From an uncultured Gammaproteobacteria bacterium (lineage in GTDB: Bacteria > Patescibacteriota > Patescibacteriia > 2-12-FULL-60-25), in assembly GCA_964541725.1 (NCBI GenBank), contig CAZIQG010000001.1, positions 1 to 33,368 on the forward strand: a stretch of 33,368 nucleotides of DNA, written 5' to 3'. Position 1 is the first letter of the stretch. Every line of letters starts with the position of its first letter. Shown one piece after another: positions 3,644-19,793 of the stretch. The position numbers and the translations under genes were made by a program. The notes under the pieces are model-generated. The model was given only the letters and a program-made list of their open reading frames with translations. It made no database searches and was not told the origin of the DNA.

Positions 3644-4414
3644 ATGAATGTCGAACAGCGTTTGCAAGATATGGGTCTTTCCGAGCAGGAAGCAGCCATC
3701 TATCTCGTTCTTTTAAAGACTGGTGGCTTGCCTGCCAGTCTCGCCGCAAAAGAGGTGGGTCTACGTCGCACCACCGCCTATGCCATCCTAAAATGCCTCG
3801 CCCAAAAAGGCTTTGTCGAAGTGTTTATAAAGCGCGGACGACAAATCTTCATCGCCGAAAAACCGCAGCAGATCGCGGGCTATTTTGAAAAGAAGCTCAA
3901 AGCCTTTACCGAGGGCATCCCTCTCTTTGAATCTCTTGAGAAAAAACACATCCAAACCACCGGCGTCCGTTTTATCGAAACCGTCGACGAATTAAAACGC
4001 TTCTACACCGGCATCCTTCGCGAATATCGCAATAAATCCTACGCCGCCATGGGCAACAGCAACGCCTGGCAGGGGTTAGATCCAACTTTCTTTATCCAAT
4101 TCCGCAAAGACCGCGCTGCCGCTGGCATCCATACACGCATCCTTCTCTCCAGTGATTCGCATGAGACAAACCCAAAAGAACACAATCTCTTACGCGAAGT
4201 AAAATTCCTCCCTGCCAAGTATCTCTTCAGAAGCACCATCGATATTTTCGACGACAAAGTCCTGATCATAAGTCCCGACCAAAGCTCCTTGGCCATCGTC
4301 ATCGCCGTACCAGCGATGGTAGACATCTTCCGTTCAACGTTTGATATGATTTGGGATGTTACTTTAACGTCACAATCTTCCCGCTCCCCCACACAACTTC
4401 AAAAATCTGCTTAA
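3644..4414 (+). CDS. TrmB-family transcriptional regulator
   Basis: N-terminal TrmB-type winged HTH (GLSEQEAAIYLVLLKTGGLPASLAAKEVGLRRTTAYAILKCLAQKGFV) and a family-typical length of about 250 aa. No SD. Confidence 0.85.
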   Translation: MNVEQRLQDMGLSEQEAAIYLVLLKTGGLPASLAAKEVGLRRTTAYAILKCLAQKGFVEVFIKRGRQIFIAEKPQQIAGYFEKKLKAFTEGIPLFESLEKKHIQTTGVRFIETVDELKRFYTGILREYRNKSYAAMGNSNAWQGLDPTFFIQFRKDRAAAGIHTRILLSSDSHETNPKEHNLLREVKFLPAKYLFRSTIDIFDDKVLIISPDQSSLAIVIAVPAMVDIFRSTFDMIWDVTLTSQSSRSPTQLQKSA

Positions 4415-5099
4415 GCACACTCGTAATATCGCGCGACTCAATCTCCATGCCGAACACCTGTCGAAAATCCACAATATATACGCGATTACCGTACAGTCCA
4501 ATCTCAACATTTGAATGGTACAGATCCTGCGGAAGTAAGCGTGTCTCACGCAATTCGCCTTTATCACGTTTTTGTAGCATGACATTCTCCGGCGAAACCT
4601 CCGCAATCATCCGTAAAAAATTCCCACGAGCTACACGCTGAGGCACATGCTCTTTTAATAGGTTTAGCTGTTCCTTCGAAACGAAGCTTGGCGTAGTGAA
4701 TAATTCAATATTTCCTTTGTGTAGCAACATATGCTCGTACACCTGCTTCACCCCACTGACTCCCTCATAATAAAACACACTCGGTTTTTCCGTCGGAGTG
4801 TTCGTAATCGCCTTAAAGCGGGGGAGGGCCTGCTTCAATTGTTCGAGGCGTCGCTCTTGGATTTTCAAAAGTTCATCGGGATCCAAAGCAAGAAAGAGTT
4901 GTTTTCGTCCTCGTTTCACTTGCTTGATGAGTTCCAGCTCCAACAACTTTGGCAGCACGTCATAAAAATTCGTCCGCTGAATCCCAGCTTTTGAAGCAAT
5001 TTCTTGTGCGGAGGCTTCCCCTAGCTCAAGCATCGCTAAATAGATGTGCGCTTCTTTGGTTTTGAGGCCGAAGGATTCGAGGACATGGGTGAGTTCCAT
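4359..5099 (-). CDS. TrmB-family transcriptional regulator (paralog)
   Basis: N-terminal wHTH (GLKTKEAHIYLAMLELGEASAQEIASKAGIQRTNFYDVLPKLLELELI). Its 3' end overlaps the convergent TrmB gene by 56 nt (4359-4414). Confidence 0.85.
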   Translation of the reverse strand: MELTHVLESFGLKTKEAHIYLAMLELGEASAQEIASKAGIQRTNFYDVLPKLLELELIKQVKRGRKQLFLALDPDELLKIQERRLEQLKQALPRFKAITNTPTEKPSVFYYEGVSGVKQVYEHMLLHKGNIELFTTPSFVSKEQLNLLKEHVPQRVARGNFLRMIAEVSPENVMLQKRDKGELRETRLLPQDLYHSNVEIGLYGNRVYIVDFRQVFGMEIESRDITSVLKQIFEVVWGSGKIVTLK

Positions 5100-8981: not shown

Positions 8982-9068
8982 GGGCGAGTGGCGGAACTGG
9001 TAGACGCACTGGTTTCAGGTACCAGCGATCGCAAGGTCATGAGGGTTCGAGTCCCTCCTCGCCCACCA
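8982..9068 (+). tRNA. tRNA-Leu (anticodon CAG), class II with long variable arm, CCA encoded
   Basis: Acceptor GGGCGAG/CTCGCCC, anticodon stem CTGGT/ACCAG with loop TTCAGGT (CAG), variable arm GATC-GCAA-GGTC, T arm GAGGG-TTCGAGT-CCCTC, discriminator A followed by CCA. Confidence 0.92.
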
Positions 9069-16857: not shown

Positions 16858-17925
16858 TTAGTTGTGAAGGGGGACACGTGTCCCCCTTTTAAGTTGATGG
16901 CCAGATGGCGCATCGAGCACCCGCTGCTCGTAGTTGCCGATCCGACCACCGATTCGCCTAACGGACTCAAGTCCGTGCGCGGTCTGTACCGTCGCGACGG
17001 TGTGCATGACTCCACGGTTCCAGAACGACCGACTGCTGACCACCAGGCCGTGTTCCGTCGTTTGCGGCTGCACGCGGGGGTAGCCGAGGACGAGGAGGAG
17101 CGCAGAGGCGGCGTAGAAAGAGGCCGTTGTCGCGGTAGACCGATCTTTTCTAATGAAGAATGCGTAGATAACGAAGATAAGTGCCGTTATACAGATGAAA
17201 AGGCAGACCGATAGCACGACAGTACATGTAAGTGACGCACCCGGCTCACGCGGAGAAGGGGCTGGTCCACTGGCGTATGTCTCTGTAATTGAGGCGATGT
17301 CTGACGGGCCAAGATCTCGCTTGGCGATTTCCCCTGGTTGGGAAGAAGGGAACATCGTAGCGTCTGCGTGGCCAGGGTCCTCTACGAGTCCAAGTGCGTG
17401 GCCAAACTCATGTGTAACCACATTCGGAAAATCATAGAGAGCACCTGGAACCCCCAGCATCGATTCGCCGAGGATGGTAAAGCGGTTACGCTCGCCGTCG
17501 AATATAATGTCTGCGTCCACGACCTCACCCGTTTTAGAATCACGAGTAAGGAGAGTGAGCGCCAGCACCTGACGACCGATGCAGGCACGAGGGAATCCGT
17601 GCCGATAGAATCGGATGCCGTGCTGGTTATTATCACTATCATCATGATAACCGATCGGCCCCGTCTCGCCTGCCTCGATCTGAAAGCGGGGTGCATTTGG
17701 ACTCGCGACTTCCCAGGCATGAGCCGCTTGCGTTACCCATCTCACGGGATCAGATACGGGCGACCCACGAAACGATTCCACATCAACGATGAAGTGGATC
17801 ACATCTGTATTCCAGTGAACGATATTACCACCATCAACCCTGTTCACAGACTGCCCCCATCCAAAGGCGGGGAGAAGGGTGAGACAGAAGAACATGATGC
17901 CTAGGAGGCTGTTTTTGATGCTCAT
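16858..17925 (-). CDS. membrane-anchored zinc metalloprotease (zincin, HEFGHALGLVED)
   Basis: ATG at 17925 is preceded by GGAGAGAG. The product has a signal peptide (MSIKNSLLGIMFFCLTLLPAFGWG), an HExxHxxGxxE/D zincin motif, the TM helix LTCTVVLSVCLFICITALIFVIYAFFI and a cytoplasmic tail. The ORF is open to 17958. Confidence 0.7.
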   Translation of the reverse strand: MSIKNSLLGIMFFCLTLLPAFGWGQSVNRVDGGNIVHWNTDVIHFIVDVESFRGSPVSDPVRWVTQAAHAWEVASPNAPRFQIEAGETGPIGYHDDSDNNQHGIRFYRHGFPRACIGRQVLALTLLTRDSKTGEVVDADIIFDGERNRFTILGESMLGVPGALYDFPNVVTHEFGHALGLVEDPGHADATMFPSSQPGEIAKRDLGPSDIASITETYASGPAPSPREPGASLTCTVVLSVCLFICITALIFVIYAFFIRKDRSTATTASFYAASALLLVLGYPRVQPQTTEHGLVVSSRSFWNRGVMHTVATVQTAHGLESVRRIGGRIGNYEQRVLDAPSGHQLKRGTRVPLHN

Positions 17926-17980
17926 GATGCTCTCTCCGGCTGTTGTTTGAAAGTCCATTGCCCTTTACAGGCAAGAAGGA

Positions 17981-18009
17981 AGCATAGCGCAAAAACCCCC
18001 ATTTGTCAA
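17981..18009 (-). promoter_or_regulatory. near-consensus promoter of the metalloprotease gene
   Basis: On the minus strand: TTGACA (18009-18004), 17-nt spacer, TATGCT (17986-17981). Confidence 0.5.
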
Positions 18010-18127
18010 TCAGAAAAAGCTTAAAAACAGCTAATATTAGCAATAAAAACACCCCACTCAGATGGTCTGCGATACGAAGGTAGGCATCCGAGCGGGGGAA
18101 GGTAGGGAAGAAGGAGCGGAATCGTGT

Positions 18128-19288
18128 CTACGCGGCGAGTGCGACCTGACGGAAGTGCTTCTGGAGGCCTCTGACGCAGCCCGCGTATCGGGGGTGTCGT
18201 TCTTCGATGAGCTCGGTCCGATTCTTGTCCTTGTGGGGGAAGAAGTCACGTCCTGCGAGCGACCAGGGGACGTAGAGGCAGGCGTCGTCATCGCACGGCA
18301 TGAGGATGCCGTACTCGCCGATCTCTGCTTCCTGCACGTCACAGAGGATGAAGCGCTTGTGCACGAGGTCTTTCGCCTTCTCCTTCTTGGCACCCACGCG
18401 CTTGAAGAGCGCTTCGAGGTTCACGAGCCCGTGGATCGGATCTCGCAGTTCCTCTGCGCTCTTGCGAACGAGTCGACTCTCCTCGAGGAGCGTGCTTGCC
18501 GCACTCACCATCCAGCGCCGCTTGATCACTTTGATGCGGAGGTTGCGCGGGTTGTGGACGATCCGCCAGCCAAGACCGTTAGATGCGTCCCGCTTCAGGA
18601 GCTTGGCGCTACAGAAGCGTCCGATGGTCTGCAGAAGCTCCTTCTCATCCGCATCAAGCCCGAGGCGCAGCGCCTCAAGCCTGAGCGCGGGCGAGAGGGA
18701 TGGATCCCATCCGTCGATGGGCTGGTCGTCAGGCGTCTGTCCCACGAAGTAGGCCCACACCCGCTGTTCGGCCGGAGTCATGTACGCTCCCAGCCATCCA
18801 TGCTCCACCCGTCCACGCGCAGGAGGCTCACTAGCGGATCCGACCATGGGCCTCTCGTATGCTCTCGGTCGGGCACACGGGCGTTCGGGAAGCGGAGCCT
18901 GAACCGTTCCTTTCTGCTTGCTTCGCGTCCTTTTCTTCTTGGGAGATGACGCCTTTGCTTTGGGAGTGAACGGCTTCTTCGTCGACTCGAATTCGCTGGG
19001 ATCCTGCACGAGGATGTAGCCGCCCTCGTCACCTTTGACAACCCAGGACTTCATCGTTCGATAGAAGATGGTGCGCGCTTCATCTCCGTTGACGCGCTCC
19101 CAGGAGCGGCACACATCGTTATCGCGTCGAAGACGATCTGCGATCTCGAAGATCAGTTTTACCGGGTTCTCTGCCTTCAGCACGAGCCTTCCTCGTGCAT
19201 CTTCAGTGCCCAGCCTGTGAAGCTCGCGATAGATCGCGATCGCCCACCGGCGTCGAGCGTCTCCTCTTGTTTGTTCTCTTGTCCCCAC
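18128..19288 (-). CDS. hypothetical protein (orphan Z, 386 aa, Lys-rich linker)
   Basis: GTG at 19288 has AGGAGAGA 4 nt upstream and the codon pattern is consistent throughout. Two domains are separated by KKPFTPKAKASSPKKKRTRSKQKG. No domain recognised. The antisense ORF 18062-18949 is taken to be a GC-driven artefact. Confidence 0.6.
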   Translation of the reverse strand: MGTREQTRGDARRRWAIAIYRELHRLGTEDARGRLVLKAENPVKLIFEIADRLRRDNDVCRSWERVNGDEARTIFYRTMKSWVVKGDEGGYILVQDPSEFESTKKPFTPKAKASSPKKKRTRSKQKGTVQAPLPERPCARPRAYERPMVGSASEPPARGRVEHGWLGAYMTPAEQRVWAYFVGQTPDDQPIDGWDPSLSPALRLEALRLGLDADEKELLQTIGRFCSAKLLKRDASNGLGWRIVHNPRNLRIKVIKRRWMVSAASTLLEESRLVRKSAEELRDPIHGLVNLEALFKRVGAKKEKAKDLVHKRFILCDVQEAEIGEYGILMPCDDDACLYVPWSLAGRDFFPHKDKNRTELIEERHPRYAGCVRGLQKHFRQVALAA

Positions 19289-19342
19289 GGGTCTCTCCTG
19301 ATGATGGTGGGTTGTGAGTTGCTGACAGAAAGTCAGCCCTTG

Positions 19343-19371
19343 TTCTTAGCGAAAAAATGGAGGTATGTCAA
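19343..19371 (-). promoter_or_regulatory. candidate promoter of orphan Z
   Basis: On the minus strand: TTGACA (19371-19366), 17-nt spacer, TAAGAA (19348-19343). It lies back to back with the tRNA promoter -35 box (TGTCAA-N8-TTGACA). Confidence 0.3.
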
Positions 19372-19379
19372 CCCTATAC

Positions 19380-19408
19380 TTGACAAAATCCAAGAAAACA
19401 AGTTGAAT
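19380..19408 (+). promoter_or_regulatory. candidate promoter of the tandem tRNA genes
   Basis: TTGACA (19380-19385), 17-nt spacer, TTGAAT (19403-19408). The predicted start is 2-3 nt before the tRNA 5' end at 19418. Confidence 0.45.
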
Positions 19409-19417
19409 TGACGCTTC

Positions 19418-19489
19418 GGGTCGGTAGTGCCAAAGGGAGAACCCAGGTGTGCAACGCCTGAAATACGGGTTCGAATCCCGTCCGATCCA
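19418..19489 (+). tRNA. tRNA with anticodon GCA (Cys by anticodon) but an Ala-type acceptor (G3:U70, A73); no CCA encoded
   Basis: Acceptor GGGTCGG/CCGATCC, anticodon stem CAGGT/GCCTG with loop GTGCAAC, T arm ACGGG-TTCGAAT-CCCGT. The D stem GTGC/GAAC has one mismatch and position 14 is C. Confidence 0.6.
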
Positions 19490-19515
19490 CCCAGATCCTT
19501 AATGTGCGAAGCAAA

Positions 19516-19587
19516 GGGGCCGTAGTTGTAATGGGAGAGTTCTGGGCTAATGACCCGGCGATGCGGGTTCGATCCCCGTCGGCTCCA
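19516..19587 (+). tRNA. tRNA-like gene with anticodon AAT and an Ala-type acceptor (GGGGC..., G3:U70, A73); possibly degenerate
   Basis: Acceptor GGGGCCG/CGGCTCC, anticodon stem CTGGG/CCCGG with loop CTAATGA, T arm GCGGG-TTCGATC-CCCGT. The D stem GTTG/GAGT is weak (two wobbles and one mismatch). Confidence 0.45.
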
Positions 19588-19620
19588 CAGATGTCAAAAC
19601 AGCCCTTTCTTCTCTTCCCG

Positions 19621-19653
19621 GACGGACTCCTCAAAGGTCCGTCTTATCTTTTT
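19621..19653 (+). terminator. intrinsic terminator after the tRNA pair
   Basis: GACGGAC / 9-nt loop / GTCCGTC, followed by TTATCTTTTT. Confidence 0.55.
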
Positions 19654-19749
19654 CCCTAATCTTAGCGAGCTTTCCCTCTTTGGTAGGTAAGTGTTCGCCT
19701 TTGGCCTTTCTGACGCCTAATCCCTGACGCCTGACGCCGATCCCTGCCC

Positions 19750-19778
19750 TTGACGTTTCCCCTAAACATCGCTATCCT
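19750..19778 (+). promoter_or_regulatory. candidate rplS promoter
   Basis: TTGACG (19750-19755), 17-nt spacer, TATCCT (19773-19778). The ATG at 19794 implies a leader of about 9 nt without an SD. Confidence 0.4.
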
Positions 19779-19793
19779 TAGCCCATCATTTCT

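Follow-up and report, generated by a model that had tools for sequence, protein, structure and literature searches.

Two tandem tRNA-like genes, tRNA-1 and tRNA-2, lie in a 33,368-nucleotide (nt) stretch of a Patescibacteria chromosome (contig CAZIQG010000001.1; the whole stretch is referred to as the window), where they form a small operon beside a divergent gene for a 386-amino-acid (aa) protein. Both genes join acceptor-stem identity elements of tRNA-Ala to anticodons, GCA and AAU, that do not belong to alanine. We tentatively interpret them as accessory tRNA-Ala-like RNAs on a foreign cassette that could be charged by alanyl-tRNA synthetase (AlaRS), and in which the acceptor/T minihelix and stem architecture, and not the reading of a given codon, would be what is kept; alanine misincorporation would then be at most a weak by-product. 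Comparison of related strains, together with base composition, strongly supports the view that the pair is optional cargo of a strain-variable cassette of foreign composition.

Alanine-type identity elements in two class I tRNA-like genes

An initial annotation of the window had read two 72-nt cloverleaves at this locus, and both were recovered by independent tools. ARAGORN listed tRNA-Leu(CAG) at 8982-9068, tRNA-Cys(gca) at 19418-19491 and tRNA-Ile(aat) at 19516-19588 as the tRNAs of the window, and the Rfam tRNA model RF00005 (gathering score 29 bits) matched tRNA-1 (45.2 bits, E=1.1e-6) and tRNA-2 (43.5 bits, E=3.3e-6) over their full length (model positions 1-71), with the boundaries given in Table 1. 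In this covariance-model register the acceptor stems are GGGUCGG/CCGAUCC in tRNA-1 and GGGGCCG/CGGCUCC in tRNA-2, with G3:U70, G2:C71 and A73 in both RNAs, U4:A69 in the former and G4:C69 in the latter. G18, G19 and G20 are present in both, the T loops are canonical (UUCGAAU in tRNA-1, UUCGAUC in tRNA-2), and the anticodon loops read GUGCAAC and CUAAUGA, respectively. Covariance-model folding offered no alternative register, and the G3:U70 pairs, A73, both anticodons, the T loops and the D-loop GG described at first all stand. The same is true of the missing A14 (C14 in tRNA-1, U14 in tRNA-2) and of the D-stem mismatches, of which each tRNA has one (G12/A23 in tRNA-1, G13/G22 in tRNA-2).

CCA is unencoded in both genes, A73 being followed by CCC in tRNA-1 (19489-19492) and by CAG in tRNA-2 (19587-19590). 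The host tRNA-Leu(CAG) (8982-9068), unlike the two cassette tRNAs, encodes its own 3' CCA. A 28-nt T-arm/acceptor block is 82% identical between tRNA-1 and tRNA-2, which would be consistent with tandem duplication.

The E. coli AlaRS identity set consists of G3:U70 as the major element together with A73, G2:C71, G4:C69 and G20; the alanine anticodon NGC defines the isoacceptor and is not needed by the enzyme. tRNA-2 holds this whole set and tRNA-1 holds it minus G4:C69, and G3:U70 is retained in both alleles of the pair in a related genome (L003; see below). Among the tRNAs collected during the analysis, the best match of tRNA-2 is a tRNA-Ala(UGC) (56/72), and its acceptor stem, UGGGAGAG D loop and T loop are common to bacterial tRNA-Ala(UGC). 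The NGC anticodon is absent, its place being taken by GCA and AAU in the window and by UUC in the L003 allele of tRNA-2. The combination of an AlaRS identity set with non-alanine anticodons, as first proposed, is thus correct for the sequences themselves. Because AlaRS reads G3:U70 with A73 and ignores the anticodon, tRNA-1 and tRNA-2 are best read as AlaRS-chargeable, tRNA-Ala-like RNAs with non-alanine anticodons, charging being predicted from established identity rules.

The anticodons would also fit a different reading, in which the two RNAs are genuine cognates that aid expression of the foreign gene, tRNA-1 being charged with cysteine by a SepRS/SepCysS-type system or a relaxed cysteinyl-tRNA synthetase (CysRS) and tRNA-2 with isoleucine. 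The main determinant for CysRS is U73, and tRNA-1 has GCA but A73 in both known alleles, together with G3:U70, a strong AlaRS determinant. Isoleucyl-tRNA synthetase (IleRS) counts t6A37 and C4:G69 among its required features, the E. coli set being a GAU, LAU or IAU anticodon, A37 (as t6A), A73 and C4:G69. tRNA-2 carries AAU, G4:C69 and a G37 that, following U36, rules out t6A37; it fits tRNA-Ile only in A73, which is also the tRNA-Ile discriminator, A38 and U12:A23. tRNA-2 was not matched by an Ile-tRNA profile hidden Markov model (HMM); profile HMMs for Ala and Ile, trained on the collected tRNAs, were left unused as isotype evidence, since many non-Ala tRNAs outscored the pair. The strain variant of tRNA-2 reads UUC, the cassette contains no synthetase gene, and a reader of AUU would give the cassette gene nothing because that gene uses no ATT among its 16 Ile codons. 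Although SepRS systems occur in some Parcubacteria (PMC5424206), we regard cognate charging as very improbable.

Promoter, allelic variation and decoding

The two transcription signals named in the initial annotation, TTGACA-17-TTGAAT upstream of the pair and a hairpin with a T run downstream, are both present. tRNA-1 starts 9 nt past the -10 element. A consensus promoter scan did not list this promoter, its rule demanding A at position 2 of the -10 element. Promoter and leader are identical in L003 (40/40 nt), and L014, an allele whose protein is only 45% identical to that of the window, has TTGACG-17-TTGAAT and an equal 9-nt leader, which ends in CTTCG. The -35 box stands back-to-back with that of the 386-aa gene, 8 bp apart, an arrangement of the form TGTCAA-N8-TTGAC(A/G) that L014 retains, with TTGACG. 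Downstream, the terminator-like hairpin ends the tRNA operon ahead of the rplS promoter (TTGACG at 19750); its stem is kept in L003 with a changed loop, and the hairpin has decayed in alleles without the tRNAs.

Two metagenome-assembled genomes at NCBI, GCA_018061025.1 and GCA_020049755.1, encode a protein 88% identical to the 386-aa protein, and in GCA_018061025.1 the tRNAs are found on a second contig (L003). The cassette of this genome is split over contig ends (L003:1-130, JAGOUY010000011; L011:1-125, JAGOUY010000009) by an insertion-sequence-like element with the contig-end inverted repeats (C/G)GCACTGTTGCA...TGTGGGTGA. The insertion separates the two divergent promoters and duplicates 8 bp, ACTTGACA, which contain the -35 box of the tRNA promoter, so that both promoters are intact.

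Alleles were compared between the window and the L003 genome as pairwise identity by segment. Besides the invariant promoter and leader, identity is 91.8% in the coding sequence of the 386-aa protein, 96.9% in the 5' intergenic region, 70/72 in tRNA-1, 21/26 in the spacer between the tRNAs, 54/72 in tRNA-2, 51/69 in the trailer, 57% in the next 90 nt and 47/48 in the rplS promoter. The changes in tRNA-1 are A17C and G39A, the latter of which turns U31:G39 into U:A, and the anticodon loop is identical. That tRNA-1 is more constrained than its surroundings was considered and rejected, as identity is in any case 92-97% across the left half of the cassette. In tRNA-2, the 18 differences leave all 24 positions of the acceptor and T stems untouched (P=1.8e-4 under uniform change), and both changes in the anticodon stem preserve pairing. 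In place of the AAU anticodon, G37 and UUCGAUC T loop of the window tRNA-2, the L003 allele has UUC, A37 and AGCAAAA, and the D arm is altered too. The L003 alleles score 46.7 bits (tRNA-1) and 40.6 bits (tRNA-2) with RF00005; ARAGORN does not call the L003 allele of tRNA-2. A separate observation concerns the tRNA-2 anticodon arm (19543-19553, UGGGCUAAUGA), which is complementary at 10 of 11 positions to the 5' untranslated region of rplS (19775-19785, UCCUUAGCCCA). This was dismissed as chance, since 13 pairs of this kind occur within 2 kb and since the match is lost in L003, where the untranslated region is unchanged.

More distant alleles bear on the history of the operon. A clade comprising P0123/L013, L152 and L149, in which the protein is 52% identical to that of the window and 69-93% identical within the clade, has kept the protein gene and lost ~200 nt, from just past the -35 box to just past tRNA-2. 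The most distant allele (P0124/L014) shows the promoter layout and, before the contig breaks off, the initial 14 nt of a sequence resembling a tRNA. This start (L014:1-30, minus strand) reads GAGUCAGGUGGUUC, against GGGUCGGUAGUGCC in the window, and contains one extra base before U8, which would mean that the acceptor stem has 8 bp or that the 5' end is shifted; a shift would lose G3. When alleles are ordered by protein identity, those with the tRNAs fall on both sides of the tRNA-less clade, so that the operon looks like an old part of the cassette, ancestral to it and lost once.

Divergence of this kind could also reflect hitchhiking relics: duplicated tRNA-Ala genes whose anticodons drifted in a donor genome and which are now neutral or being disarmed, without function. 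Such an origin is consistent with the irregular D arms and anticodon loops, the lost A14 and the unencoded CCA, with tRNA-2 loops that diverge about as much as the flanking spacer (75% vs 74-81%), with a tRNA-1 identity not above the local background, and with the deletion of the pair in one clade and the dispensability of the whole cassette. The distribution of changes in tRNA-2, which spares the acceptor and T stems and keeps the anticodon stem paired, argues against it, as do scores of 40-47 bits against the tRNA model for all versions, retention of the promoter layout in L014 despite a protein identity of only 45%, and the confinement of terminator decay to alleles without tRNAs. We consider relics an unlikely explanation, and plain pseudogene decay, which had been listed among the first options beside mistranslators, tRNA-like decoys or regulators and mobile-element cargo, is weakened by the conserved promoter, intact stems and high covariance-model scores.

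Both anticodon loops look poor for decoding when set beside 273 unique reference tRNAs gathered during the analysis. Position 32 is a pyrimidine in 272 of these and G in none; in tRNA-1, G32 faces C38 and is able to pair with it, and the RNAfold minimum-energy structure pairs both G32:C38 and U33:A37, leaving a GCA triloop. All 99 reference tRNAs with U36 have A37 (U36-G37, 0/99), and in tRNA-2 U36 is followed by G37, which besides precluding t6A37 is no TrmD context. tRNA-2 also encodes A34; bacterial TadA acts specifically on tRNA-Arg, so that this base is unlikely to be converted to inosine. An elongator competent in decoding would be expected to combine U8 with A14, to carry at position 32 a pyrimidine that forms no Watson-Crick pair with position 38, and to have A37 wherever position 36 is U; neither tRNA shows all of these features. 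The G32-C38 pairing and the G37 after U36 had been overlooked at first, as had the unencoded CCA and the variability between strains.

These loops weaken the suggestion, also made at first, that the pair are deliberate mistranslators. Once alanylated, they would read Cys (UGY) and Ile (AUU) codons as Ala, and likewise Glu (GAR) codons in the strain variant, with a selected function in stress, conflict or diversity. The mismatch between identity and anticodon on which this suggestion was built stands, the promoter is conserved and a terminator is present, and tRNA-1 has an intact T loop, G18/G19, U33, A37 and the same anticodon loop in both alleles. The suggestion fits poorly with G32 opposite C38 and U36-G37, neither of which occurs in the reference tRNAs, with an improbable I34, with a tRNA-2 anticodon that is not conserved (AAU vs UUC) in a molecule whose T loop is destroyed in one allele, and with a clade that lost the tRNAs and kept the protein gene. 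The cassette gene itself keeps invariant Cys codons and residues, and a comparison of tRNA-bearing with tRNA-less alleles revealed no codon use in it that is tuned to the tRNAs and no tRNA-linked codon avoidance. Deliberate mistranslation therefore seems doubtful, despite the precedents of G3:U70 allo-tRNAs that insert Ala in E. coli (PMC5389517) and of tRNAProX/ProRSx in Streptomyces (PMC11415595).

Within the family of the cassette gene, ATT accounts for 0/16 Ile codons in the window, 0/14 in L011, 0/16 in L013 and 2/17 in L014, and T-ending codons make up 25-39% of the other two-fold boxes. ATT avoidance caused by the AAU tRNA was rejected as an explanation, since the tRNA-less allele also has no ATT among 16 Ile codons.

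A strain-variable cassette and its protein

The window is a housekeeping stretch of a Patescibacteria (Candidate Phyla Radiation, CPR) chromosome. For its ribosomal protein L19, identity is 96% to a protein of a 'Patescibacteria group bacterium' and ~70% to Candidatus Uhrbacteria. The window also carries a class I Trp/Tyr-type aminoacyl-tRNA synthetase, RNase J, UvrA, ClpP, RbfA and SMC. Elsewhere in the window, two open reading frames (ORFs) for TrmB-family regulators, at 3644-4414 (+) and 4359-5099 (-), are convergent, with 3' ends that overlap by ~55 nt.

Table 1. Features of the cassette and its surroundings, in window coordinates.
Feature	Position	Strand	Basis
tRNA-1, 72-nt class I cloverleaf, anticodon GCA	19418-19489	+	ARAGORN, RF00005
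tRNA-2, 72-nt class I cloverleaf, anticodon AAU	19516-19587	+	ARAGORN, RF00005
tRNA operon promoter-like site: TTGACA (19380-19385), 17 nt, TTGAAT (19403-19408)	19380-19408	+	read from sequence
Intrinsic-terminator-like hairpin (GGACGGAC...GTCCGTC) and T run	19620-19654	+	scan of window sequence (19620-19644)
386-aa protein gene, divergent from the tRNAs	18128-19288	-	ORF; sole ORF of the cassette besides the tRNA operon
Promoter-like site of the 386-aa gene: -35 TTGACA (19371-19366), 17-nt spacer, TAAGAA (19348-19343)	19343-19371	-	inferred from sequence
Strain-variable cassette, ~1.7 kb (386-aa gene and tRNA operon)	18051-19746	.	alignment to cassette-free L002
M10 peptidase gene, cassette neighbour (on the other side: rplS promoter)	16858-17958	-	

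Relatives were compared through fetched rplS loci, with L19 identities of 88-96%. The flanks of the cassette align to the locus of strain L002 up to ...ATAAAAAC and resume from CCCTTGACG, between which L002 has ~72 unrelated nt; the cassette of ~1.7 kb stands in place of this empty site. It is present in the window, L001, L003/L004 and L010-L012, partial in L014, and absent from most close relatives: L002 (L19 96%), L144/145 (95%), L146-148 (93%) and L005-7, L153-162 (ten contigs, 88% lineage). In the cassette-free strains the M10 peptidase gene lies ~185-250 bp from rplS, with no tRNA and no 386-aa gene between them. The cassette gene has a GC content of 60.8% (71.6% at third codon positions, GC3), compared with 51.5% (GC3 53.3%) in host genes, and all members of the 386-aa family have 57-61% GC.

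The idea that the pair is cargo of a mobile element, likewise raised in the initial annotation, holds only in part. The segment is variable and foreign, as presence/absence and the shift in GC and GC3 indicate, but no integrase, transposase or flanking or terminal repeats were found in the cassette. A recombinase, repeats or a target-site duplication, and phage genes, by which a mobile genetic element would be recognized, were not found, and there is no clean empty-site junction. Scans of viral contigs for either tRNA and for the 386-aa family returned nothing, and BLAST against phages and plasmids returned only a 28-nt T-arm match. A remnant of an integration site was also rejected, there being no integrase and no tRNA at the site in cassette-free strains. 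In the lineage of L008 (1-890) and L009, the M10-rplS intergenic site (window 17959-19793) holds an unrelated 165-aa ORF with no match in Pfam, PHROG or PADLOC. We take the site to be a hot spot for variable cargo because another lineage holds this different ORF at the same spot. The M10 (matrixin-like) peptidase beside it shows 80% identity in comparisons in which L19 shows 96%, and 46-54% in those in which L19 shows 88-93%, a much faster divergence that suggests diversifying selection or recombination at the locus.

Since near-identical strains live without it, the pair can hardly supply the sole tRNA-Cys and tRNA-Ile of the cell. Cys and Ile codon use in host genes is normal (TGT 58, TGC 31, ATT 229, ATC 254, ATA 29), these genes contain no in-frame TGA, and the CxxC motifs of UvrA are intact. 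We infer that tRNA-1 and tRNA-2 are not the working Cys and Ile decoders of the cell; that they might be its only tRNA-Cys and tRNA-Ile genes, a possibility considered at first, would be excluded by the sister strains and by host codon use.

Searches for further copies covered several kinds of data. An exact 43-nt scan of genome contigs for tRNA-1 gave 0 matches. A degenerate-pattern scan of 185,000 genomes gave 120, all of them ordinary tRNA-Ala(UGC) with A38 that the pattern admits, which makes the scan uninformative on how common such pairs are. When metagenomes were scanned with the promoter and leader pattern, all 8 matches lay in unrelated coding DNA without tRNAs, and a protein-database search with a spurious 86-aa ORF overlapping the tRNAs, which sought miscalled ORFs over related pairs, gave none.

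The 386-aa protein has no match in Pfam, PHROG, PADLOC or PDB sequences, and its full-length family has only four members among 5.8 billion proteins. A profile search revealed 15 remote homologs of the C-terminal domain, two of which have an N-terminal extracytoplasmic function (ECF) sigma-70 r2+r4 module. In P0125 and P0126 (800-1000 aa), ECF sigma-70 (r2+r4) is joined to the N-terminal and C-terminal domains of the cassette protein and then to a long coiled coil, and this domain family appears to be undescribed. The cassette protein is laid out as an N-terminal domain, a basic linker and a C-terminal domain (residues ~155-385). AlphaFold2 modelled the C-terminal part (residues ~145-386, alignment from the profile search) confidently, with a predicted local distance difference test score (pLDDT) of 88 and a predicted TM score (pTM) of 0.87. 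Foldseek found no whole-domain match to this model, only local winged-helix matches of ~80 aa, all non-significant (E>1e-3), to MarR-type regulators, cullin WH-B, Pol III RPC62, SelB RNA-binding domains and Rep initiators. Foldseek matches of the full-length model (pLDDT 49) were not meaningful, and only the C-terminal model was used. The N-terminal 100 residues also appear weakly winged-helix-like. The protein is possibly nucleic-acid-binding, with DNA or RNA as its ligand.

Such a protein could form a self-contained recoding module with the pair: it would control or work with two AlaRS-charged tRNAs whose anticodons vary between strains (GCA+AAU, GCA+UUC), thereby directing Ala to different sense codons. 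Such a module might serve as a regulated stress response, an antiviral measure or an inter-strain conflict factor in a reduced-genome CPR bacterium, and we judge it quite improbable.

A mechanism is instead proposed in which tRNA-1 and tRNA-2 are accessory tRNA-Ala-like RNAs. The pair would be co-transcribed from the sigma-70-type promoter that stands back-to-back with that of the 386-aa gene; its conservation is observed, and expression is predicted. RNase P would cut the transcript, its 3' ends would be trimmed, and CCA would be added enzymatically because it is unencoded. The window contains an RNase P RNA gene of bacterial class A (756-1223, +; 158.9 bits), which at 468 nt against a 367-position model has several large insertions. 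AlaRS would then charge the processed RNAs with alanine. Because the loops break near-universal decoding rules, and because the anticodon and T loop of tRNA-2 vary and its acceptor and T stems do not, selection would appear, from one allele pair, to retain the acceptor/T minihelix and stem architecture rather than codon reading. The products would be cassette-specific Ala-tRNA-like RNAs that might act as partner, target or regulated product of the 386-aa protein; if they also placed Ala at UGY or AUU codons, they would do so no more than weakly and incidentally.

Several points weigh against this mechanism. Expression, processing and charging are all predicted from sequence. The 97% identity of tRNA-1 is not above the local background of 92-97%, so purifying selection on it is not demonstrated. 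Identity falls off sharply past tRNA-1, as it would at a recombination breakpoint, and the two versions of tRNA-2 are old and divergent alleles. The case for structural selection rests on a single pairwise comparison, the known sequences being two full alleles of the pair and a 14-nt fragment. tRNA-1 keeps U33, A37, a canonical T loop and G18/G19, and could still decode. A link between the 386-aa protein and RNA is hypothetical, and the locus of one remote homolog of the protein has no tRNA. The presence of canonical tRNA-Cys, tRNA-Ile and tRNA-Ala elsewhere in the genome is deduced from sister strains, not seen.

Comparison with known systems

Natural tRNAs in which charging identity and anticodon conflict are rare, and they bear on the rigidity of the genetic code. 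One group of such RNAs, the allo-tRNAs, carries a long variable arm. Allo-tRNAs of Acidobacteria and other bacteria are the closest precedent for the pair, since they too combine G3:U70 with non-Ala anticodons at accessory loci (PMC5389517). In E. coli, allo-tRNAs that bear GCG or UUA as their anticodon direct the insertion of Ala (Mukai et al. 2017, NAR, PMC5389517), and polycistrons of irregular tRNAs have been described near toxin-antitoxin or transposon genes, many of them suggested to be non-translational and perhaps regulatory (PMC5389517). The acceptor/T branches of allo-tRNAs are 8/4 or 9/3 (PMC5389517), whereas the pair has the ordinary 7/5 branch of a 72-nt class I tRNA. The pair belongs to a Patescibacteria genome, and its neighbour is the gene of the 386-aa protein and no recognizable toxin-antitoxin system.

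The tRNAProX/ProRSx systems of Streptomyces and Kitasatospora (PMC11415595) are likewise accessory, show disagreement between identity and anticodon, and are mistranslation candidates whose role is unknown. They differ from the pair in their Pro identity, dedicated synthetase paralog, well-formed anticodon loops and proven activity in E. coli; the pair has Ala identity and no synthetase in its cassette. Ala misincorporation is also caused by anticodon variants of human and yeast tRNA-Ala and by G3:U70 mutants of tRNA-Cys, tRNA-Pro, tRNA-Thr and tRNA-Gly (PMC12084884, PMC10543346, PMC11415595). The principle, an Ala-type acceptor stem with a foreign anticodon, is the same as in the pair. These variants are eukaryotic single-nucleotide changes of normal tRNAs, whereas the pair has divergent bodies and irregular loops and belongs to a bacterial accessory operon.

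Charged tRNA-shaped RNAs with a role outside decoding and weakened decoding or EF-Tu features are represented by the Staphylococcus tRNA-Gly for cell-wall bridges and by Bacillus cereus tRNA-Other (cited in PMC5389517), to which the pair is likened by analogy only. The window yielded no Fem/MurM-type transferase, MprF or T-box leader, and a role in T-box regulation was rejected for the window, where the Rfam scan gave no T-box or other riboswitch match.

A limited literature search found no report of bacterial genes for class I tRNAs of the tRNA-Ala type whose anticodon is one for Cys, Ile or Glu, the documented bacterial cases of conflicting identity that it returned being tRNAProX (PMC11415595) and the structurally odd allo-tRNAs (PMC5389517). 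Ordinary-shaped Ala-type tRNAs with Cys, Ile and Glu anticodons would extend this list to the Patescibacteria, whose minimal genomes leave little room for ballast and in which the cassette of the pair comes and goes between strains. If the pair is charged and used, it would constitute a natural Ala-mistranslation system; if it is charged and does not decode, it would point to a hitherto unknown job for Ala-tRNA-like RNAs, perhaps one tied to a new protein family.

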